DNA of 64,000 bases from Candidatus Magasanikbacteria bacterium RIFOXYC2_FULL_42_28 (GCA_001784435.1 MFQZ01000003.1:3022-67021); one strand, 5' to 3'; positions 10,746 through 24,695 are shown, numbered from the stretch's first letter. Numbers and translations are program-made. The notes: generated by a model not told the origin, from the letters alone.

Positions 10746-10760
10746 TCGATAATGACTAAT

Positions 10761-11387
10761 TTAAGCCAAATTTTCTGCCACACTATACTCTTGCAACGCC
10801 TTTTTAATTTTCTGCTCGCTTACTTCATAACCTGGCAAAAAATAAACTTTCTCGCTATAATTAATATCATTAAAATACGCTAACTGCTCTCTAAAAATTC
10901 TTCCATTAAACTCACCACCAAATATTGCTTTCCCGGCTTTGGTTATTTCTACGACTGAATGATGATCACGAATGATAAAATATAAGTCAACATAATCTTT
11001 CCATTTTGCTCGCCGCCCCAAAGCGTACGCTTTCATCGCGGCCAAAGTAAGCAAATCCGGAAAACGCAGTAACTTGTCAAAATTTTTGCTATAATCAATT
11101 TTGAATGGATATTGAAAAAAAGTCAACTGTACTTGTCCAATAAAAAAAGTAAATTGACCATCTTCGTCCTTATACACCGTTTTTATCTTTCGTCGGCTCT
11201 TAGTAATCGCTTTTCTAATTTTGGCATTATCAAATTTCTCCAAAGAAAACAAATCAAAATCAATTGACTGACGATGGCCAATTTGCAAAGCAATAGCCGT
11301 TCCTCCCACCAAACCAAATTTTTTAGTAAATTTTCCCACTAACGGCAAGAGTTGACGTTGTTCCTCTGATAAAATTTCTGGATGCAT
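10761..11387 (-). CDS. nucleotidyltransferase-family protein, AbiEii/DUF1814-like (putative toxin of a type IV TA module)
   Basis: N-terminal GG...D.D motif LVGGTAIALQIGHRQSIDFDLF, as in AbiEii-like nucleotidyltransferases. 208 aa; immediately follows a small ORF on the same strand. Confidence 0.4.
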   Translation of the reverse strand: MHPEILSEEQRQLLPLVGKFTKKFGLVGGTAIALQIGHRQSIDFDLFSLEKFDNAKIRKAITKSRRKIKTVYKDEDGQFTFFIGQVQLTFFQYPFKIDYSKNFDKLLRFPDLLTLAAMKAYALGRRAKWKDYVDLYFIIRDHHSVVEITKAGKAIFGGEFNGRIFREQLAYFNDINYSEKVYFLPGYEVSEQKIKKALQEYSVAENLA

Positions 11388-11392
11388 AATAT

Positions 11393-13728: not shown

Positions 13729-15147
13729 ATGAAACGCTTTGAACTATTTTTCACTTTTTTACAATTACCGCTGGATTACGCCGCTTTGGTACTCGCCGGA
13801 TTCACGGCCTATACCTTGCGTTTTTCCGATTTCGCCATTTCTATTCGGCCGGTAATTTTTAATTTATCTTGGGAAAAATATTGGCCGCTCGTACTGGCTG
13901 TCTCGGCGCTTTGGGTGATGATTTTTGCGATTTCCGGATTATATAGTGCCGATCCTAACCGTAAATTCGCCGCTGAATTTTCCAAAATAATTTTGGCCTG
14001 CTCCACCGGATTTTCGGCCATCACAATTTACGTTTTTTTTACTTTACAAAAATTTGATTCCCGCTTTTTGGTTTTAGCCGGTTGGATTTTGGCGATGATT
14101 TTTGTGGTATTTGCTCGCATGCTGATGCGCGCTTTTAAAGCCGGCCTGCACTACGGCGGATTTGGCTTACGCTTGGTAGGAATTATTGGTGCCGAAGAAA
14201 TTGCCGAAACCATTGCTTCGGAACTTGATGGGCGCCGCTATTTGGGATACAAAGTCGTAGGAATTTTTCCGCATTTTAATCAAGAGACGTCCAAACGATT
14301 GCTCACCTTAAATCCGGATGAAATTTTATTCACCGACCCCAAAGCACACGAAGCCGATACTTTAAAAGCCATTGATTTTGCCAATGAACATCATTTGACT
14401 TTTAAATATTCCGCTGATCTTTTTTCTACCATTTCCACCAACATGACTGTCTCAACTTTGGCCGGCGTGCCGATAATTGAACTCAAACGCGCGCGTATCA
14501 CGAGTTGGGGTAGAATTATCAAACGCTTAATTGACATCGTTGGCGGGCTGACTTTATTGTTAATTTGCGTTCCGATATATTTAATTATCACCCTCATAAT
14601 TTTAATTGAAACCGGCCGGCCGATAATTTACAAAAATGAACGCGTGGGACAAGAAGGCAAAAAATTTAACGCCTATAAATTCCGATCACTCTATCAGAAA
14701 TTTTGCACTGGAAGGCAGTTTGGCGAAGACGGCCAAATGGCTTTACAAAAAGAACAAGAATTAATTTCCGCGCAAAGTATTAAATCCGGACCGGTTTATA
14801 AAATTCAAGACGACCCGCGCGTGACGCCTTTCGGCCGATTTATTCGTCGTTTTAGTTTGGACGAGATTCCCCAATTTTTAAATGTATTGCTTGGTAATAT
14901 GAGTTTAGTTGGTCCGCGCCCACATCAACCGCGCGAAGTGGCCAAATATGAAAAGCAACAAAAAATTGTCATGGCGGTTAAGCCGGGCATGTCCGGCCTG
15001 GCCCAAGTTTCCGGCCGCAGTAATTTAAGTTTTGAAGATGAAATAAAGTTAGATACTTTTTATTTAGAAAATTGGACGATTTTAATGGATGTGATAATTA
15101 TTTTAAAAACGCCGTTTGTGGTGATTAGACGAAAAGGGGCGTGGTAA
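13729..15147 (+). CDS. polyprenyl-phosphate sugar phosphotransferase (WbaP/bacterial sugar transferase family)
   Basis: N-terminal TM segments, then the C-terminal sugar-transferase domain with [44 protein letters not shown] and [14 protein letters not shown]. Confidence 0.85.
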
Positions 15148-15281: not shown

Positions 15282-16400
15282 ATGCGCGTAGCGCTAGTAC
15301 ACGACTATCTATTCCAAGACGGCGGAGCCGAAAGAGTGCTCCGCGCCCTCCATGAAATTTGGCCCGAGGCGCCGATTTTTGTTTTGTTTCATAATAAAGA
15401 AAAAATCAGTTCATCGGCCGAAACGCGCGAATCATTTTTAGCCAAATTACCGGGCGGACGCACCGCGTTTCAATGGTATCTCCCTTGGATGCCGCTGGCC
15501 ACTGAGCGCCATGATTTATCCGGCTTTGATTTGGTAATTTCTTCGTCCAGTATTTTCGCCAAAGGCATTATCACTTCCCCGGGCACTTTGCATATTTCTT
15601 ACTGCCACACGCCGGCGCGCTTTTTGTGGGCCGATGGCCACGAATATTTATCTGATTTAAAACATTCGCCTTTTGTCAAACTGATTTTACCCGGACTAAT
15701 TCATCGTTTGCGTTTGTGGGACCAAATGAGCACGGCGCGCGTGGACCGCATCGTTGCCAATTCGCACACCGTGCGCAATCGCATTTTAAAATATTATCGA
15801 CGCGACTCGGAAGTGATTTACCCGCCAGTAAATACTAAACTTTTCAAAGCCAGCCCGCTCGTGGAAAATTATTTTGTCGCCGGTGGTCGGCTCGTCCCTT
15901 ACAAACGATTAGATCTGGCCGTCAAGACATTCAATCGCCTTAAACTGCCGTTAAAAATTTTTGGCATTGGGCCGGAATTAACATACTTACAAAAAATCGC
16001 CAAATCCAACATTGAATTTTTAGGAAAAATATCCGAAATGGATAAAGCGAGTTTACTCGCCCACGCCCAAGCGTTTATCCACCCTCAATTGGAGGACTTT
16101 GGCATCACGCCGGTCGAATCAATGGCCGCCGGCCGGCCGGTAATCGCCTATGGCCAAGGTGGAGCCACCGAGACCATCACCCACGGTGAAACCGGTGTCT
16201 TATTTCCCCGCCAAAATTGGGAATCACTTTATCAAGCCGTGCGAGATTTTGACGGCAAGGCCTGGGATAGCGAAAAGTTACACGCCCAAGCGGAAAAATT
16301 TTCTACCGAAGAATTTAAACAAAAAATCAGCCGATACGTGGCTGACTCTTATGATGAATTCAAAAAAGGTTTTAATCAGTGCGAGTTGAAATTAAAATAA
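15282..16400 (+). CDS. glycosyltransferase family 4 (GT-B, glycos_transf_1)
   Basis: MRVALVHDYLFQDGGAERV N-terminus; C-terminal E-x7-E region FIHPQLEDFGITPVESMAAGRPVIAYGQGGATETI. Confidence 0.8.
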   Translation: MRVALVHDYLFQDGGAERVLRALHEIWPEAPIFVLFHNKEKISSSAETRESFLAKLPGGRTAFQWYLPWMPLATERHDLSGFDLVISSSSIFAKGIITSPGTLHISYCHTPARFLWADGHEYLSDLKHSPFVKLILPGLIHRLRLWDQMSTARVDRIVANSHTVRNRILKYYRRDSEVIYPPVNTKLFKASPLVENYFVAGGRLVPYKRLDLAVKTFNRLKLPLKIFGIGPELTYLQKIAKSNIEFLGKISEMDKASLLAHAQAFIHPQLEDFGITPVESMAAGRPVIAYGQGGATETITHGETGVLFPRQNWESLYQAVRDFDGKAWDSEKLHAQAEKFSTEEFKQKISRYVADSYDEFKKGFNQCELKLK

Positions 16401-17681
16401 AATATCTTTCGCCCAATTGATAATGTGATCGCCCGCGTTGGGAAAAATACTAACAACGAGCAACAGTAAACTCACGAGCGACAACCGCACCACCGCTTCC
16501 CAAGTAACCAAATTATACCAAAATTTTTGAAATTTGCTCGGTTCCGGTAGCCCGAGTTTTTTTGTTTTGTTCATGAGTAACGCCACGAACACCAAAATTA
16601 CTGGGAGTAAAATCGCGTTCACCACCTGCGCCGAAACCATAATGTGAAACAACGACAAAAATGGCAACAGCACTATTACCGAAGCGATGCCAATTATTAC
16701 CGCCATCAGTCCATAAAACCACGGGGCTTCTTTCCAGGTGCGATTCATGCCATATTCAAACCCCAAGGCCTCACAAATAGTATAGCTCGTGGTTAATGGC
16801 AAAATAAACGCGCCCAAAAGTGACGCGCAAAAAAATCCAAACCCAAACAAAAACTCGGCCCAGTTGCCCAAAATTGGCCGCAAGGATAAAGCGGCGCTTT
16901 TGGCGCTATCCACCACAATGCCATTATCATACAAAACATTTTTGGTAGTAATTATTATCATCGCCGCGATCAAACAGGTAAAAAACGCGCTCAAAAATAC
17001 TTCCCATTTCTCAATTTTAAAATACTTAGGGCTGACGCCTTTGTCTACGATATAGGACTGAATAAAAAACTGCCCCCACGGCGTGACGGTCGTGCCCATA
17101 ATGCCCAAAAATGCCACAAGATAGGCACTGCCAAAAGAAAAATGCGGCACTGTCAGCGCGCGCCCAACTTCGGCCCAATCCGGTTGCGCCATCACCGCCG
17201 CGAAAACATAAACAACAAAAAATAATGATATCAATAAAAAAAATCTTTCCACTTTTTTAAATGAACCTTTGTACAAAATCCACCAAATTAAAACCGCAAA
17301 AATCGGCACGGTGATAAATTTACTGACGCCAAAAATTTCAAATGAACTCGCGATACCAGCCATTTCCGAAGCCGACACCGCGGTATTGGCGATAAATAAT
17401 GTTAAGAGCGCGAGCACGGTGGCGCGTACGCCGAAATTTTCCCGAATCAATGCCGACAGACCTTTGCCGGTATAAATTCCTAAACGCGCTCCGACGCTTT
17501 GAGTGACGAATAAAGTGATGACATTAAGCGTCAAAACCCATAACAATAGATAACCAAAACGCGAACCGGCGTAAGCGTAGGTGCTAATACCGCCGGCATC
17601 GTTATTAGCCGCGCCCGCGATGAGCCCGGGACCGACAACGCCCAGCGCAATCACAATTTTTGGCCAAAAATTTTTAAACAT
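16392..17681 (-). CDS. NRAMP-family divalent cation transporter, NRMT-like variant (metal-site substitutions typical of NRAMP-related Mg2+ transporters)
   Basis: 429 aa and polytopic. The TM1 motif is GPGLIAGAANNDAGGIS (canonical DPGN replaced by DAGG). The TM6 motif is GIMGTTVTPWGQFF (canonical MPH replaced by TPW). The gene lies 7 nt downstream of an MgtE-N/CBS protein. Confidence 0.65.
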   Translation of the reverse strand: MFKNFWPKIVIALGVVGPGLIAGAANNDAGGISTYAYAGSRFGYLLLWVLTLNVITLFVTQSVGARLGIYTGKGLSALIRENFGVRATVLALLTLFIANTAVSASEMAGIASSFEIFGVSKFITVPIFAVLIWWILYKGSFKKVERFFLLISLFFVVYVFAAVMAQPDWAEVGRALTVPHFSFGSAYLVAFLGIMGTTVTPWGQFFIQSYIVDKGVSPKYFKIEKWEVFLSAFFTCLIAAMIIITTKNVLYDNGIVVDSAKSAALSLRPILGNWAEFLFGFGFFCASLLGAFILPLTTSYTICEALGFEYGMNRTWKEAPWFYGLMAVIIGIASVIVLLPFLSLFHIMVSAQVVNAILLPVILVFVALLMNKTKKLGLPEPSKFQKFWYNLVTWEAVVRLSLVSLLLLVVSIFPNAGDHIINWAKDILF

Positions 17682-17688
17682 AAAATAC

Positions 17689-18972
17689 TTACGCTCTCGG
17701 ACGCATCGTGCGCATCACGTCGTCAATGGTAACCACCCCCAACATCTTGTGATCTTTGTCCAAAACCGCCACGCTAAACAAATTATAGCGCGTCATCATA
17801 TCACAAATATAATTAAGATTATCATCCGGGCTTAGGGTCGGCAAACGCTTCTGTTTTTTGATTACTTCGCGCAATTTTTGTTCCGGTTTTGCCAAAAGCA
17901 AACGCCGCAGCGAAATAGCGCCTCGAAATACGCCTTCGGTATTAATACCATAAATATACAAAATGGAACGAAATCGCGCGGAAAATTTACGAACTTCTTC
18001 CATTGCTTGCGCCACGGTCAAATCTAAACTAACCGGAATATAATCAACGGTCATAAGACCACCCGCCGTATCATCGTCGTGCGCCAATAACTTCTTAACT
18101 GCTTGATGGCGCTCATCTCCTAAAAACGACAAATAAACCGCGGCATCAGATTTAGAAAATGATTGAATCAAATCCACCACTTCATCGGTGGACATATTAT
18201 CTAAAATTTGGCGAATCCGCCCTGGGTCAAAACTTTTTAAAAATTTCTTTTGAGTTTCTTCATCCATTTCTTCCAACACTTTGGCGGCACTACGCGGATC
18301 TAAATAACCAACTAACTTACTACCGCGTTTTAAATGTAAGTCCTCGATAATATCGGCCATATCGGCCGGATGCAAACGATGAAAATTACTGGCCAACGCC
18401 CCGATTTTTAAAGTCCCGCGCACGGGCGAAGCATCGCGCCAATCAATCAAATTGGTTTTAAGTAAATGAAAAACATCTAACCACAAAAGTCCAAGGCGCC
18501 GAAACAATCCGCGCACACTCACATCAATCCCCACCACGCGCATTTTATCGTCCACCACCGCGAAACGCAAATCATTGGCTCGCACCACGCGCGCGCCGTT
18601 GATATCCATAATTTGTTGATCGTAAATATCGTCCACGAGCGAAAGACAACCGGTGGGACGCTCGGTAACGCGCTCTAATTTATCCCAAACCCGACGCAAT
18701 ACCACTCCGGATTTACTAATATGCTCGGTTTCTCCGTAAGGAATATAAAATAATCCTCCGCCTTTTCCGGCAATAACCAAAAATTCCAACGGAGCATATT
18801 CGCCGTCTTGTGATTTAATTAAAATATCTTTTAAGCGACCGACGACTTTTTCCGAAGCATCAGTGACATCGGATTTTAAAATACCGCTAAAATACATCAT
18901 ATTGGCGACATTAAATTTCAGCTTAATTATACCCCCAAAAAACAAAAAAATCAATATGGACAAAACTACCAA
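17689..18972 (-). CDS. MgtE N-terminal domain + CBS-pair cytoplasmic protein lacking the MgtE pore (putative Mg2+-sensing regulatory subunit)
   Basis: Contains the MgtE_N-like region (PADMADIIEDLHLKRGSKLVGYLDPRSAAKVLEEMDEETQKKFLKSF...DEVVDLIQSF) and two CBS motifs (MTVDYIPVSLDLTVAQAMEEVRK...; SVAVLDKDHKMLGVVTIDDVMR). It ends directly after the CBS pair with no TM pore domain. The N-terminus has one hydrophobic segment and a beta-rich region. Confidence 0.7.
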   Translation of the reverse strand: MVVLSILIFLFFGGIIKLKFNVANMMYFSGILKSDVTDASEKVVGRLKDILIKSQDGEYAPLEFLVIAGKGGGLFYIPYGETEHISKSGVVLRRVWDKLERVTERPTGCLSLVDDIYDQQIMDINGARVVRANDLRFAVVDDKMRVVGIDVSVRGLFRRLGLLWLDVFHLLKTNLIDWRDASPVRGTLKIGALASNFHRLHPADMADIIEDLHLKRGSKLVGYLDPRSAAKVLEEMDEETQKKFLKSFDPGRIRQILDNMSTDEVVDLIQSFSKSDAAVYLSFLGDERHQAVKKLLAHDDDTAGGLMTVDYIPVSLDLTVAQAMEEVRKFSARFRSILYIYGINTEGVFRGAISLRRLLLAKPEQKLREVIKKQKRLPTLSPDDNLNYICDMMTRYNLFSVAVLDKDHKMLGVVTIDDVMRTMRPRA

Positions 18973-18980
18973 AAAAAGAT

Positions 18981-20117
18981 ATGATTAAGAAAGAATATAT
19001 GCGAATTGGAATTGACGCGCGGATGTATGGCCCAAAACAAGGCGGACTCGGACGATACATTCAGCAACTAATTTTAAACTTGGAAAAAATTGATAGCGTT
19101 AACGAATACGTAATTTTTTTGCGTAAGGAAAATTGGGATGAATTTACGCCAACCGCGCCGAATTTTACGAAAAAATTAGCCGACATTCATTGGTACGGCT
19201 GGCGCGAACAACTGCTTTTACCAAAAATTTTAAATACTGCCAAAGTAGATTTAATGCATTTCCCCCATTGGAATGTGCCATTTTTTTATCGCCAGCCATT
19301 TGTCGCGACTATTCATGATTTATTGCTACTTCACTATCCCACTCGCGCCGCCAGCACTCTCGGACCGATTTCGTATTTCTTCAAAAATATTGCATTTAAA
19401 TTTATTTTAAACCACACTGCCAAATCTGCCAAACAAATTATTACGCCGTGCGAGTTTGTAAAAAACGATATTGTAAAAACGTTAAAAATAAATCCCGAAA
19501 AAATTGCCGTCACACTTTTAGCGCCGACGCTAAGCGTCGGCCATGGGACGTTAAGCGTCCCGCCCGATAACCTCCCCACCCAACCCTATGTTTTATACGT
19601 TGGCGTGGCCTTCCCCCACAAAAACCTGCCCGGTCTGATTCGCGCTTGGAAAATTTTTACAGAAAAATATGACAACAGTTATCGCTTAGTTTTAGTTGGT
19701 AAGGAAAATTATTTTTACAGACAACTTCAAAATCATCCCCTTGTTAAAGAATTGAAAAACAAACCAATTTTCACCGGCTTTGTGCCGGACGAACAGTTGG
19801 CGCATTTTTATCAAAACGCATCGCTGTATATTTTTCCGTCGCTCTACGAAGGATTTGGTGTGCCACCGCTGGAAGCAATGCAATATAATATTCCGGTCGC
19901 GTCCTCAAACCGCACCTGCCTGCCCGAAATTTTAAAAGACGCGGTGGTATATTTTGATCCGGAAAACTACGAAGCAATAGCCGAAACGATAAAACACGCG
20001 CTCACTGACGAAAATTTACGCAAAAATCTCATAATTAAAGGCCAAAATCTTCTCAAGAATTACTCTTGGGACGCGACTACCAAACAAACGCTCAAAATTT
20101 ACCAAAATTGGGGATAA
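18981..20117 (+). CDS. glycosyltransferase family 4 (GT-B) with an in-frame palindromic-repeat insertion
   Basis: Typical GT4 C-terminus FPSLYEGFGVPPLEAMQYNIPVASSNRTCLPEI. Nucleotides 19529-19562 (gacgctaagcgtcggccatgggacgttaagcgtcc) are two hairpin repeats that translate as PTLSVGHGTLSVP. Confidence 0.8.
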   Translation: MIKKEYMRIGIDARMYGPKQGGLGRYIQQLILNLEKIDSVNEYVIFLRKENWDEFTPTAPNFTKKLADIHWYGWREQLLLPKILNTAKVDLMHFPHWNVPFFYRQPFVATIHDLLLLHYPTRAASTLGPISYFFKNIAFKFILNHTAKSAKQIITPCEFVKNDIVKTLKINPEKIAVTLLAPTLSVGHGTLSVPPDNLPTQPYVLYVGVAFPHKNLPGLIRAWKIFTEKYDNSYRLVLVGKENYFYRQLQNHPLVKELKNKPIFTGFVPDEQLAHFYQNASLYIFPSLYEGFGVPPLEAMQYNIPVASSNRTCLPEILKDAVVYFDPENYEAIAETIKHALTDENLRKNLIIKGQNLLKNYSWDATTKQTLKIYQNWG

Positions 20118-20169: not shown

Positions 20170-22758
20170 TTGCTTGTCATGAAAAATTCTTCATTTAATA
20201 AAAAATCCGTGCAACGGCGTTGTTGCGGTGTTTGTGGCAAACATGGCCACAACAAATCTACCTGTTCCGGCTTCGCCTTGCGGGCTACGCCGGACAAGTC
20301 CGGCTTTGCTTTACGGGATACGCCGAGCGAGTCGATTTTAGAACCAGCAAAAATCATGCCGGCTAAATATTCTCCGGCTTTGCCAACTCCTAATCGTGGT
20401 ATTGGTTTTTTTGTTCATCATGTCAGTGGCGCGCCTCAAACTTCGGCGCACGTGGTAAATTTAAAAAATACTAAAACTGATGTTTGGGAAAAGGTACAAG
20501 CCATTGCCCCGGAACAAGACACCAATCTTTACCACCACTATCACGAAATTCCGACCGCGCCCCAACCGAACTTTTCCGTTCCTGTTAAAAAAACCATCAT
20601 AATCACCGATGAATTTGATCTGCCGGTATTGCAACAAACCGATGAAACGGTGATAGCGCCAAAACAGTCGCTGATAGAGCAAACAATCGCGTTTGCCCCG
20701 ACTCCCAAAAAACGCGACGTTTTGGCAGCTGATTTAAAAAATTACACTAACGCCAAATTAAATAACCTGCGCGCTAACGTCAAAAATTTAGCCAACAACA
20801 GTTTGTTTTGGAAACGTAGCGCCGCGATTATGACTGCCGTCCTGATTTTTGGCATTGCCCCCATTCCGGCGCAACAATACGCGCGCGGTTTAAAATTTTC
20901 CGTGGCGACCGTAGCCGAAAACAGTTTGGCCGGTTTTTCATCTTTACAAAAATCAGTTACCTCATTATTTTCCGCCAATACCGCCCAAGCTCAAACCGAT
21001 TTGGACAGCGCTCTCACCAGTTTTAATCTGGCCGTAGATACCATGCAAACCAAGCACCGATTTTTACAAACTTTGGCGCGCGCCCTACCGCTTGTCAACA
21101 CCGAATTTGAAAGTCGACAAAATATAATCTTGGCCGGCCAAAACATTGCTTTGGGGAATTCCCATTTACTTTCGGCTTACAACAATAGCAACGCCACCGC
21201 CTCCACCACTTTAACCGACCGCCTGAAAACAATTTCCATTGGCTTAAACTCCGCCCTGCCCAATTATCAATCCGCTTTAGAACTCTTAAAACCGGTCAAA
21301 GAAAATGTTTTACCGGAAGAATATCGCGCTGAATTTAATAAATTCAAGATATTGTTTAGCGCCCTGGTTGGTGATCTAGATAACCTCTCTAAATTAACCG
21401 ATCAGTTACCGGAAATTTTTGGTGGACAAGGATTACGACGCTATTTACTCGTGTTTCAAAATGAACACGAATTACGTCCGACCGGCGGATTTATGGGTAG
21501 TTTCGCCCTGCTGGAAGTAAAAGACGGTCAAATTATAAACATCGATGTCCCACCTAACGGCTCTTACGCCTTGCGTTACACGAGCGATGTATATTTGGAA
21601 CCACCGGCACCCCTACTTTTAATTAACAGCCGTTTTGAATTTCAGGATTCCAATTGGTATCCGGATTTCCCGGCTAACGCGCAAAAAGCGCTTTGGTTCT
21701 TCCGCCACAGCCGTGGTATTACGGCTGACGGCGTGATTGCCATTAACAGCAGTGTATTTGAAAAATTATTAAAAATTATCGGCCCGATTACCGACGATAA
21801 TCGCCAAGTGGTATTAGCGCACGATAGCGCTTTGGGCACGCTCCAAGCGATTGTGGAGACGGGCGCGGAGAAAAAAGAAGGACGCCCCAAACAAATCATC
21901 ACCGATTTAACACCAAAAATAATTGACGCGGTTTTAAAACCAAAGACCGACCAACTGTTGCCAATTTTATCAGGTCTGCAAAATTCTCTGAAAGAAAAGC
22001 AGATCCAAGCATATTTTACGGATGAAAAAGCGCAAAGCGCGATTACCGAATACGGCTGGGGCGGAGAAATTTTGCCAACCGACGGCAATCAGGATTATTT
22101 ATTTGTGGTAAATACCAACATCCACGGTGAAAAAAGCGACGCGCGCATGATCCAAACGGTGAGTCATGAAGCCAAGATTGACGACGTTGGTACCATAACC
22201 AATACCGTCGTCATCACTCGTACTCATACCGGCACACGTGGTGAAAAATTTTATGGCGTCGATAATATTGATTACTTGCGTATATATGTTCCGGCGGAAA
22301 GCGAGCTCGTCAGCGCCCAAGGGTTTACTTGGCCGGAAGAAGAACAATTTTTTGCGCCCACGCCCGGAGCTACTATCGACACCGATTTAATTAAAAAAGA
22401 AAAAGAAATTAAATTTGACCAAAGAAGTGGCACTAGAATTACCGAAGAATTTGGCAAAACCGCTTTTGGCAATTGGCTCATTACTGAACCCGGACAAACC
22501 ACGCAAGCCACTTTTATATATCATTTGCCATTTAAAGTGAACCCAGCGGAAAACGGTGGTTTGGCTAATTATCAACTGATAGTCCAAAAACAAAGCGGTA
22601 TTAACAGCACTTTTGACAGCCAAATTATCACCCCTGATTCAGTAGAACCAAAATGGGCCGACGGTGTGGGTACGATCTTGGCATCCAACGGAGTGCGCGT
22701 GGAACCACTGACGCTTGATACCAACAAAATTTGGAGTTTAGTAATGAAAAAACGCTAA
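20170..22758 (+). CDS. large envelope-associated protein, DUF4012-like, with N-terminal CCHC zinc knuckle and a single TM segment
   Basis: N-terminus CCGVCGKHGHNKSTC (exact C-x2-C-x4-H-x4-C). Tandem GFALR(A/D)TP peptide repeat encoded by a palindromic DNA repeat (20262-20335). TM segment AAIMTAVLIFGIAPI, then an ~600-aa extracytoplasmic domain (RYLLVFQNEHELRPTGGFMGSFALLEV...). Lies inside the glycosylation cluster. Confidence 0.45.
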   Translation: MLVMKNSSFNKKSVQRRCCGVCGKHGHNKSTCSGFALRATPDKSGFALRDTPSESILEPAKIMPAKYSPALPTPNRGIGFFVHHVSGAPQTSAHVVNLKNTKTDVWEKVQAIAPEQDTNLYHHYHEIPTAPQPNFSVPVKKTIIITDEFDLPVLQQTDETVIAPKQSLIEQTIAFAPTPKKRDVLAADLKNYTNAKLNNLRANVKNLANNSLFWKRSAAIMTAVLIFGIAPIPAQQYARGLKFSVATVAENSLAGFSSLQKSVTSLFSANTAQAQTDLDSALTSFNLAVDTMQTKHRFLQTLARALPLVNTEFESRQNIILAGQNIALGNSHLLSAYNNSNATASTTLTDRLKTISIGLNSALPNYQSALELLKPVKENVLPEEYRAEFNKFKILFSALVGDLDNLSKLTDQLPEIFGGQGLRRYLLVFQNEHELRPTGGFMGSFALLEVKDGQIINIDVPPNGSYALRYTSDVYLEPPAPLLLINSRFEFQDSNWYPDFPANAQKALWFFRHSRGITADGVIAINSSVFEKLLKIIGPITDDNRQVVLAHDSALGTLQAIVETGAEKKEGRPKQIITDLTPKIIDAVLKPKTDQLLPILSGLQNSLKEKQIQAYFTDEKAQSAITEYGWGGEILPTDGNQDYLFVVNTNIHGEKSDARMIQTVSHEAKIDDVGTITNTVVITRTHTGTRGEKFYGVDNIDYLRIYVPAESELVSAQGFTWPEEEQFFAPTPGATIDTDLIKKEKEIKFDQRSGTRITEEFGKTAFGNWLITEPGQTTQATFIYHLPFKVNPAENGGLANYQLIVQKQSGINSTFDSQIITPDSVEPKWADGVGTILASNGVRVEPLTLDTNKIWSLVMKKR

Positions 22759-22826
22759 ATCTTAATCTAAAAAATAAGTTCCCGCCACAAGCGGGTCCGC
22801 CTCTGGCGGATAATTATAAAATTTTT

Positions 22827-24695
22827 ATGTCAGACACTCCTGAATTTTCCGTCAAACCGTTGGAAGAGGAAGAAAAACCCAAACGCCGTCGCGCCGTGCC
22901 ACGCCGTAAAACCGTTAAAAAAAGTCCACTGGAAAGCGACTTGGCTATGGCCCGGCATTTGGATGCGATTTACAAAGATGAAAACGGCGACATGCCGGAC
23001 ATGAAAAAAATTGACGTTAAAAAAGGAGGAAAATTTTTCCGCCGGGTATTTGTTTTTCTGATTATGCTGGGACTGCTCGCGGCCGCGGCCTGGGCCGGAT
23101 TTTTTATGATGCCTTCGGCGCAAAAACCGGTGTCTGACCAAGTTACTTTAAAAATTACCGGACCGGAAGACGCGGAGTTGGGTGCGACTACCACTATTAC
23201 CATTACTTACGAAAACAACCAACGCGTAGCCTTGAATAACGTGGTGCTAACTATGCGCTACCCCGAGGGCTTTATGGTACTGGCAAGCGATGTGCCGGCC
23301 GAAAACCCGACTTTCACCGAATGGCAACTAAATTCACTGCCCGCCCGCCAAACAGGCGAGGTGATTATCACCGGCAAAATGTACGGCTCGCCCGATACGG
23401 TGATGGCCTGGCGCGCGTTTTTAAACTACCGCCCGACGAATTTCCAATCCGATCTGCAAACCATGGCCACTTTCGAAAATAAAATTACCCGCTCTCCTTA
23501 CACTCTAAAACTGGCCGGTCCGGATAAAATAGGCGCGGGCAAAGAAGCCAATTTTACCGCCACCTTAGAAAACGCCGGCACCGAATGGCTTAACGGCTTA
23601 ACAGTGGTGCCAATCTTTCCGGCAAATTTCCGCTTGTCTTCGTCCACACCTACTCTTACCAAAACCGCTTGGGTGATAACACCGGGCACGAGCACACAAT
23701 CGGAAATTAAATTCAGCGGACAATTTTCCGAAAACGCTGACCCGCTTGCTAAAATAAAATTACAAGTAATCTGGACGGACGCGGCCGGCGAGCGCCATCT
23801 AATTGCTGAAAATGAATTCGGCGCGGAACTAATCAAAAATTCGCTTTCCGCAAGTTTGGCGGTTAACGGCACTTTAACCAAAGCCGCCAGTTTCCCCGGC
23901 GATATGTTAAACGCCACCATTGTTTTGAAAAATGGCAGTGATAGTGATATGACTAAAATGTCGGTAAAATTAAAATTTGACGCGCCCAGTTATGGCAAAG
24001 TTAGCGTGCTAAATTGGGCGGATTCGGAAGAAAAATTTAATGGCGTAATCAAAGGCACACAAGTGTCTGACACCGTTAGACGCGGGGAAATTGTTTGGGA
24101 TGGCAGTAAAATTCCGGAACTGAAAAAATTAGTTGTTGGCAAAGAAATAACCTGGGACATGCAATTGCCGGTTAAAGATACTAAAACCGCCGACTGGGAA
24201 GCAGTCAAAGAATTTTTGGCCACCGGAGTGGTAGAGGTAACTTTTACGGATAAAAACAATATCACCCAAACACTAACAAGTAATCAAATTGAAATTATTT
24301 TCAATTCCGACCTCAAAGCCGAGGTACGCGACGAAATAAAAACCGGCGCGACCGGCAATGACGAACACGCCATCAGCTGGGTAATAACCAACACCTTGCA
24401 CCCGCTTAAAAATGTTACGTTATCAGCCGACATTTACGGCGACGTAGAAGTAAAATTACCCGCCACCCCACCCGCCGGTAAATTGGATTACGACAGCGTC
24501 GCTAAACATTTAACCTGGACCATTGACGAGATGACGGTTAATACTGATGTGCTCGCCTTGCCGTTCACGGTCGTGCTCAAAACCAAAAATCCCACCCAAA
24601 ATGTGCTCGTTTCCAAAGTGCGCGTGCAGGCGTTAGATAATGTTACCGGTGAACAACTAAATTTGATGGCGGATGAAATTGGGCTGACACAATAA
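22827..24695 (+). CDS. membrane-anchored surface protein with repeated beta-sandwich (DUF11/CARDB-like) domains
   Basis: The ORF track starts at 22731, overlapping the previous gene; the ATG at 22827 (MSDTPEF...) is more plausible. Lys/Arg-rich cytoplasmic tail, TM segment FVFLIMLGLLAAAAWAGFFMM, then repeated ~100-aa modules (VTLKITGPEDAELGATTTITITYENN...; ANFTATLENAGTEWLNGLTVVP...). Confidence 0.45.
   Translation: MSDTPEFSVKPLEEEEKPKRRRAVPRRKTVKKSPLESDLAMARHLDAIYKDENGDMPDMKKIDVKKGGKFFRRVFVFLIMLGLLAAAAWAGFFMMPSAQKPVSDQVTLKITGPEDAELGATTTITITYENNQRVALNNVVLTMRYPEGFMVLASDVPAENPTFTEWQLNSLPARQTGEVIITGKMYGSPDTVMAWRAFLNYRPTNFQSDLQTMATFENKITRSPYTLKLAGPDKIGAGKEANFTATLENAGTEWLNGLTVVPIFPANFRLSSSTPTLTKTAWVITPGTSTQSEIKFSGQFSENADPLAKIKLQVIWTDAAGERHLIAENEFGAELIKNSLSASLAVNGTLTKAASFPGDMLNATIVLKNGSDSDMTKMSVKLKFDAPSYGKVSVLNWADSEEKFNGVIKGTQVSDTVRRGEIVWDGSKIPELKKLVVGKEITWDMQLPVKDTKTADWEAVKEFLATGVVEVTFTDKNNITQTLTSNQIEIIFNSDLKAEVRDEIKTGATGNDEHAISWVITNTLHPLKNVTLSADIYGDVEVKLPATPPAGKLDYDSVAKHLTWTIDEMTVNTDVLALPFTVVLKTKNPTQNVLVSKVRVQALDNVTGEQLNLMADEIGLTQ

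Follow-up and report, generated by a model that had tools for sequence, protein, structure and literature searches.

A predicted two-gene operon of an NRMT-type Mg2+ transporter and a pore-less MgtE-like protein in a Patescibacteria bacterium

We analysed a stretch of 64,000 nucleotides (nt) (the window) from Candidatus Magasanikbacteria bacterium RIFOXYC2_FULL_42_28 (GCA_001784435.1 MFQZ01000003.1:3022-67021), in which a pair of minus-strand open reading frames (ORFs) fills positions 16392-18972. The upstream gene encodes a pore-less MgtE-type protein, hereafter the partner, and the downstream gene a transporter of the NRAMP fold. We identified this pair as a predicted NRMT operon of a bacterium of the Patescibacteria, or candidate phyla radiation (CPR), which joins a putative Mg2+ transporter with the partner. 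The architecture is already known, and the locus is an ordinary CPR member of a near-universal pairing of NRMT with an MgtE-like protein. Shin et al. (2014, PLoS Genet 10:e1004429) reported that most NrmT genes adjoin a gene for the MgtE N-terminal cytoplasmic domain, and named these loci 'mgtE-nramp operons' (PMC4072509). The original prediction for this locus, made from the sequence alone, had taken the architecture to be undescribed, a claim which the 2014 publication overturns. Most plausibly, the partner is a Mg2+-responsive regulatory subunit.

The transporter and its partner

The transporter gene (16392..17681, minus strand) encodes 429 amino acids (aa). Its product matched the Pfam family Nramp (PF01566) with an E-value of 4.6e-85, residues 32-377 aligning with profile positions 1-351 of 357. 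Over all PDB sequences, the best match was EleNRMT (7QIA and related entries; E 1.3e-102, residues 8-409), followed by entry 10ky at E 7e-20 and the MntH-type NRAMPs at E 1e-15 or weaker. By these E-values, the transporter is closer to the characterised NRMT than to canonical NRAMPs. The second-best match, 10ky/10le, is a recent PDB deposit of a 416-aa 'Divalent metal cation transporter' which ranks ahead of the MntH-type NRAMPs and whose site segments read DPGN and AVVMPH in the alignment.

We then compared the metal site itself. In HMMER alignments, the segment NDAGGISTY in transmembrane helix 1 (TM1) of the window protein aligned with NDAGGISTY of EleNRMT and MDPGNFAT of DraNramp, and the TM6 segment GTTVTPW aligned with GTTIAPW and GATVMPH, respectively. 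This column-for-column alignment indicates that the DAGG and TPW segments are homologous to the TM1 and TM6 metal-site segments, as had been predicted. In the TM1 motif DAGG (17589..17600, minus strand), D28 and G31 correspond to D55 and G58 of EleNRMT. In the TM6 motif GTTVTPW (17076..17096, minus strand), T197 corresponds to T224 of EleNRMT, T200 stands at the canonical Met and W202 at the canonical His. The full set of changes relative to canonical NRAMPs comprises Asn to Gly, Ala to Thr, Met to Thr and His to Trp. The original prediction had correctly named Asn to Gly and Met to Thr; its set was incomplete, with no mention of Ala to Thr, which falls at a position (T224 in EleNRMT) that is experimentally important for Mg2+ (PMC8806188). 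The published NRMT site signature is DxxG-TxxA/T (PMC8806188), and the window site, DxxG/TxxT in place of DxxN/AxxM, is its T variant. Moreover, the residues studied by mutagenesis in EleNRMT are all kept at an offset of 27 (D28 = D55, G31 = G58, T197 = T224, Q352 = Q379).

To place the site among its relatives, we used an NRMT alignment to scan a single genome of each species, obtained a relative in 458 species and surveyed the best 80 loci, which span Bacillota, Chloroflexota, Patescibacteria, Methanotrichaceae, Methanosarcinales, Methanocellaceae, Nitrospirae, Smithella and Acidobacteriota. The loci were searched with hidden Markov models (HMMs) built from the partner family, and TM6 motifs were extracted by alignment. 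Among the resulting 81 NRMTs (80 species loci and the window), TM1 reads DAGG in 79, and TM6 reads TxxT in 45, TxxA in 34 and TxxS in 2; by these counts the Thr variant at TM6 is an ordinary one. As judged from the matches and the conserved site, the transporter is a true member of the NRMT clade, and the assignment made in the original prediction was sound. EleNRMT moves Mg2+ and Mn2+, not Ca2+, without H+ coupling (PMC8806188), and NrmT of C. acetobutylicum rescues a Mg2+-transport-deficient B. subtilis (PMC4072509). From the close homology and the conserved site residues, we infer that the window carrier would likewise mediate uncoupled uptake of Mg2+ and Mn2+.

The partner gene most likely covers 17689..18900 (minus strand) and encodes, from an ATG start, a soluble protein of 403 aa with a PRC barrel, an MgtE_N domain and a CBS pair (Pfam, NCBIfam). 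The Pfam matches to MgtE_N (E 2.6e-23) and the CBS pair (E 2.4e-15) were clear, and a weak PRC-barrel match was found at the N-terminus. The NCBIfam mgtE model TIGR00400 aligned over profile positions 19-250 of 450, with 149 bits against a cut-off of 232.75. Since only the N-terminal half of this model is matched, the partner lacks the pore domain and is not an MgtE channel, which agrees with the original description of an MgtE-N and CBS protein without a pore. The protein ends 3 residues past CBS2, leaving no plug helix and no membrane domain. We rejected a frameshifted or truncated MgtE, given that the family is full-length at about 403 aa in more than 1000 proteins and that the next gene is the NRMT and no MgtE membrane ORF; a frameshift hiding a cryptic pore, which the original prediction had raised against itself, is ruled out by these full-length homologues. 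The top 120 of the more than 1000 homologues cover the query fully (about 392-425 aa) and belong mostly to Patescibacteria (Magasanikbacteria, Buchananbacteria, Jacksonbacteria), and many homologues carry a precomputed PRC, MgtE_N and CBS annotation.

The MgtE cytoplasmic module is encoded at 17689..18375 (minus strand) and consists of MgtE_N (aa 176-277) and the CBS pair (aa about 280-399), followed by the stop codon. A phmmer search of the PDB matched the partner to the MgtE cytosolic domain 2yvy (E 2e-32). We predicted its structure with AlphaFold2 from 81 sequences, with a mean predicted local distance difference test (pLDDT) of 84, and Foldseek superposed the C-terminal ~237 residues of the model on 8gpv, 2yvy and 2oux with target template-modelling scores of 0.81-0.90 and root-mean-square deviations of 2.1-2.7 Å.

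The N-terminal PRC-barrel module (aa 1-165; 18406..18900, minus strand; Pfam PF05239, Foldseek) accounts for some 40% of the partner and was not mentioned in the original prediction. PF05239 matched 76 of the 81 family members (best E 4.9e-12), the window partner lying just under the cut-off (19.8-21.1 versus 21.2 bits). The Foldseek matches shown for the N-domain model were almost all PRC-barrel proteins (CdpB1/B2 8qzo, reaction-centre H, RimM) and included MTH1859 (1pm3; target template-modelling score 0.77, 32% identity). The first PRC barrel is predicted confidently; the second, a beta-rich and PRC-like half, is weaker, with a pLDDT of about 60-75. An HMM of the N-terminal region matched all 72 uncut partners in other phyla. 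The PRC barrel thus appears to be always present in the partner, a feature on which the literature searched offered no discussion.

By direct reading of the sequence, the partner stop codon TAA lies at 17691-17689 and the NRMT start codon ATG at 17681, leaving the 7-nt intergenic spacer (17682..17688, minus strand) that had been predicted. Such a short spacer suggests a bicistronic, probably translationally coupled operon.

Conservation of the pair and of its Mg2+ ligands

The neighbourhood survey, a step that the original prediction had suggested, showed that the pair is conserved. In 77 of the 80 NRMT loci (96%), the gene immediately upstream, on the same strand, is the partner gene. Conversely, 62 of 70 metagenome partner loci (89%) have an NRMT gene directly downstream on the same strand, counting only loci with at least 400 nt available downstream. 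Gene order was constant wherever the pair was adjacent, and the spacers were short. The conservation of the pair across phyla is consistent with a functional two-protein module. For three NRMT loci (L019, L068 and L074), a search of the surrounding 5 kb gave no partner, and relaxing the thresholds did not change this; the transporter of one of them (L074:4875-6206, Pyrinomonadaceae, Acidobacteriota) has a deviant site, DASG / TxxTPF.

We also searched sampled loci for the Mg2+-responsive M-box riboswitch. An M-box was present upstream of the partner gene in 6/6 sampled Bacillota operons, all with TxxT-type carriers, and absent in 7/7 sampled loci of Patescibacteria, Chloroflexota, Archaea and Smithella. 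One of the Bacillota operons, from a Pelosinus metagenome-assembled genome (MAG), carries tandem M-box aptamers (L004, 3001-3178 and 3319-3490, plus strand; 163 and 161 bits), and the other five have a single M-box each. Members without an M-box were reported in the 2014 paper (PMC4072509), indicating that it is not a defining feature.

A further arrangement was seen in a Ktedonobacterales MAG (CAYOEZ010000157.1). Immediately upstream of its partner-NRMT pair lies a gene of about 594 aa (L056:1676-3514, plus strand) that encodes the PRC, MgtE_N and CBS module together with an apparent C-terminal MgtE-like membrane domain, as judged by eye from the translation. This gene suggests that a channel can also carry the module as its built-in cytosolic domain and that full-length 'PRC-MgtE' channels exist, from which the free partner may have evolved or which may have arisen from it.

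To study whether the partner keeps the Mg2+ sites of MgtE, we mapped the ligands of T. thermophilus MgtE (PMC5882242) onto the family and counted their conservation in 72 partners of other phyla. For Mg4, 70/72 partners retain D91 and 70/72 retain D247, and the window protein has both (D239 and D394); the Mg6 ligand D95 is kept in 71/72 and in the window (D243). In MgtE, mutation of either Mg4 or Mg6 abolishes Mg2+-dependent closure (PMC5882242). The Mg7 position E59 is acidic in 70/72 partners and is K207 in the window, with K, R, Q or H across the CPR clade. Of the two Mg5 positions, D250 is acidic in 68/72 partners and is R397 in the window (R in 79/81 of the CPR clade), and D226 is not conserved (D in 10/72; N373 in the window). 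For Mg2 and Mg3, which involve E258 and D259 of the plug helix, the partner alignment ends at E253, and the region is absent from the window protein, which stops after CBS2. The selective conservation of Mg4 and Mg6 that this mapping points to was not found discussed in the literature searched.

Outside Patescibacteria, the partners continue past CBS2 into tails of 13-25 residues that are basic or aromatic and clade-specific, for example PTAWKKRLPRFYQ in Chloroflexota, PERGKLDTYSWFALTKTAGRGR in Pelosinus and PEDLRKRMPWNYHKLRRVRG in Methanothrix-type archaea. These tails could be membrane- or carrier-binding elements. Three Patescibacteria partners end directly after CBS2, without a tail. The CPR clade, as far as these alignments tell, is without M-box, basic tail and acidic Mg5 and Mg7 positions, and we found no discussion of this combination in the literature searched. 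Given the loss of the Mg5 and Mg7 acids and of the tail, Mg2+ sensing and docking in CPR may differ or be weakened.

Role of the partner

Synteny, the conservation of the ligands, the co-regulation by a Mg2+ riboswitch in Bacillota and a physiological need to curb Mg2+ influx through a carrier that is uncoupled and driven by the membrane potential all argue for a regulatory subunit, of the kind that the original prediction had suggested. We therefore propose, with modest confidence, that a Mg2+-sensing partner acting as feedback regulator of the uncoupled NRMT carrier is the best explanation of the whole. Based on the homology to EleNRMT, the carrier would use the enlarged NRMT site to let Mg2+ through in a largely hydrated form, driven by the membrane potential and uncoupled from protons, and Mn2+ is probably a second substrate. 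The partner would bind cytoplasmic Mg2+ at the clamp sites between the N-domain and the CBS pair (the Mg4 and Mg6 equivalents), and binding would shift its conformation, as in the MgtE cytosolic domain. Once Mg2+ is bound, the partner would attach to the cytoplasmic side of the carrier and hold back transport, which would place a feedback control on an otherwise uncoupled carrier. Of the parts of the partner, the PRC-barrel module is the leading candidate for docking. The M-box adds another layer of control in Bacillota, one that is absent in the CPR lineage of the window.

Several observations weigh against feedback regulation. In MgtE, gating relies on the plug helix and on Mg2 and Mg3 at the interface between the CBS domains and the membrane, all of which are absent from the window partner, which ends 3 residues past CBS2. 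Within CPR, the charge is reversed at Mg7 (K207) and at Mg5 (R397), and the basic tail is missing. EleNRMT transports Mg2+ alone in proteoliposomes (PMC8806188). Co-expression of the A. capsulatum partner in B. subtilis gave no better rescue, and the A. capsulatum transporter acted mainly as a Mn2+ importer (PMC4072509). Furthermore, 8 of the 70 partner genes (about 11%) have no adjacent NRMT. The downstream ORFs listed at these eight loci look unrelated in their raw translations, and several lie on the opposite strand, so that these partner genes appear to be orphans; we considered a different class of transporter beside them and rejected it, as no obvious transporter was found among the ORFs listed (raw translations only). 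Finally, no natural fusion of partner and NRMT was found in about 150 loci.

A more specific form of feedback regulation, which we regard as possible though somewhat doubtful, is a detachable Mg2+-sensing gate that acts in trans. Here the PRC barrels would dock on the NRMT from the cytoplasmic side, in a manner resembling the reaction-centre H subunit, whose PRC barrel caps its membrane partners, and high Mg2+ would close the Mg4/Mg6 clamp and thereby block the inner vestibule. Considering the fusion of module and apparent pore in the Ktedonobacterales MAG, the module would be a portable regulatory cassette used across two unrelated folds of Mg2+ transporter, and the CPR version, without tail, Mg5 and Mg7 sites or riboswitch, would be its minimal form.

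The partner might instead regulate something else, such as gene expression or another PRC-bound partner, and be co-transcribed with nrmT only through a shared Mg2+ regulon. The eight orphan partner genes, the three NRMTs without a partner and the null result of co-expression in the A. capsulatum system would fit this explanation, as would the varied binding partners of proteins with PRC barrels (RimM, CdpB). However, the two genes are neighbours in 96% and 89% of the loci in the two directions, in a fixed order and with very short spacers in Bacteria and Archaea alike, a pattern typical of proteins that form a single complex. Pfam detected no DNA-binding domain in the partner, and the joining of the same module to an apparent MgtE pore points to a role as a transporter regulatory domain. 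We consider this explanation unlikely.

We also examined whether the partner could sense adenine nucleotides or another CBS ligand (e.g., ATP) and tie the carrier to energy status more than to Mg2+. Adenosine ligands are common for CBS pairs, and the CBS pair of MgtE binds ATP, which tunes its Mg2+ sensitivity (PMC5529423). The residues that contact the ATP phosphates in MgtE, Y170 and R187, correspond to Y315 and R332 of the window and are kept elsewhere in 69/72 and 61/72 partners. However, the adenine-stacking F227, which is essential in MgtE, is Leu in 81/81 CPR members and in 62/72 others, and the ATP ligands N203 and D188 are not conserved in partners. The replacement of F227 by Leu argues against MgtE-like ATP binding by the partner, and we regard nucleotide sensing as quite improbable.

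Similarly improbable, in our judgement, is a cytoplasmic metal chaperone or buffer that takes Mg2+ or Mn2+ from the inner vestibule of the carrier without gating: the conserved acidic ligand positions, the transport by CA_C0685, CA_C3329 and EleNRMT without a partner and the Mn2+ orientation of the A. capsulatum pair would suit it, but free Mg2+ is millimolar and needs no chaperone, the MgtE cytosolic domain is a sensor with millimolar Mg2+ affinity (PMC5882242), and MgtE_N/CBS modules have no known chaperone role.

Both cytoplasmic feedback regulation and the chaperone alternative were first offered for the MgtE-like fragment by Shin et al. as speculation (PMC4072509). The 2022 paper on EleNRMT contains no discussion of the partner (PMC8806188), and in the literature searched we found no later paper on partner function or on a PRC barrel with MgtE. 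The interest of the pair rests on what a companion contributes to a carrier that is functional by itself in vitro, a question now twelve years old. Our results sharpen this question, in that the companion is almost obligatory in Bacteria and Archaea, always comes with a PRC barrel and keeps exactly Mg4 and Mg6. The stripped-down CPR form may suit reconstitution and cryo-electron microscopy as a minimal system. For annotation, where the partner is currently labelled 'CBS domain-containing protein' or 'magnesium transporter', the pair would be better named an NRMT-type Mg2+/Mn2+ transporter and its MgtE-like regulatory partner.

Control region, surrounding genes and known systems

The partner ORF was first listed as 17689..18972 (minus strand), with a TTG start and 427 aa, the length given in the original prediction. 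We rejected this start in favour of the ATG at 18900, which most likely begins the gene, on four grounds. The TTG extension leaves just 8 nt to the divergent glycosyltransferase gene, and a promoter-like site sits within the extended ORF. In addition, gene callers give 403 aa on identical public contigs, and homologue alignments begin at residue 1 with the consensus MxYLS. The promoter-like site (TTGATT, 17-nt spacer, TATAAT; 18926..18954, minus strand) was found by a consensus scan with 10/12 matches and is a consensus match only. It would leave a leader of about 25 nt, into which an M-box riboswitch cannot fit. In line with this, Rfam gave no match at 16200-19400 even at E <= 1 and none in the whole window at the gathering score, and an M-box or other Rfam element over the operon was rejected.

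The operon is bounded upstream by a divergent GT4 gene, and the 3′ end of the NRMT gene shares 9 nt with a convergent glycosyltransferase gene. The neighbours at 18981-20117, 15282-16400 and 13729-15147 (all plus strand) are cell-envelope glycosylation genes, namely two GT4 glycosyltransferases and a Bac_transf/CoA_binding_3 sugar transferase (Pfam, on the identical contig L001), and have no obvious functional tie to Mg2+ transport. Further along the plus strand, 20170-22758 encodes a large DUF4012 protein (859 aa as called on the identical contig), and 22731-24695 a 654-aa protein with a faint CLIPPER match only; both are likely to be surface proteins of CPR. On the other side of the operon, at a distance of a few kb, a 208-aa gene of the AbiEii toxin family (PF08843; L001:12295-12921, expected at about 10760-11390 of the window, minus strand) is preceded by two small ORFs and may belong to a type IV toxin-antitoxin or abortive-infection module.

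Compared with canonical NRAMP/MntH transporters (DraNramp, ScaDMT, EcoDMT), the window carrier has the same LeuT-type fold with the metal site in the unwound TM1 and TM6. However, these proteins match it with E-values of only 1e-12 to 1e-15, and in the window DPGN is replaced by DAGG and A-x-x-M-P-H by T-x-x-T-P-W. The carrier lacks the soft Met ligand of canonical NRAMPs, which excludes Mg2+ and Ca2+, and the His linked to H+ coupling. EleNRMT of Eggerthella lenta (7QIA/7QIC/7QJI/7QJJ; Ramanadane et al. 2022, eLife 11:e74589) is much closer, with 44% identity to the window carrier in a two-sequence alignment, an identical TM1 NDAGGISTY, Thr at the Ala position and P-W after the site. The two differ at TM6, where EleNRMT has TxxA and the window TxxT; both forms are in the published consensus and are about equally common.

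With T. thermophilus MgtE (2YVX/2ZY9; 2YVY), the partner shares the N-domain and CBS fold over residues ~170-400 (target template-modelling score 0.81). In contrast to MgtE, it has no plug helix, no pore and no Mg1-Mg3, and it has an extra PRC-barrel module and Leu in place of the ATP-stacking Phe. The five-helix membrane domain of MgtE with the pore Asp D432 is not present in the partner, as judged from TIGR00400 and the end of the sequence. The partner is instead a separate polypeptide encoded beside an unrelated LeuT-fold carrier.

The closest known systems are the operons of Shin et al. from C. acetobutylicum (CA_C0685/CA_C3329) and A. capsulatum (Acp2976-Acp2977). The window copy differs from them in its origin from Patescibacteria/CPR and in being without M-box, basic tail and acidic Mg5 and Mg7 positions, and it shares with them the same pair of genes, in the same order and with a carrier of the same transporter clade.

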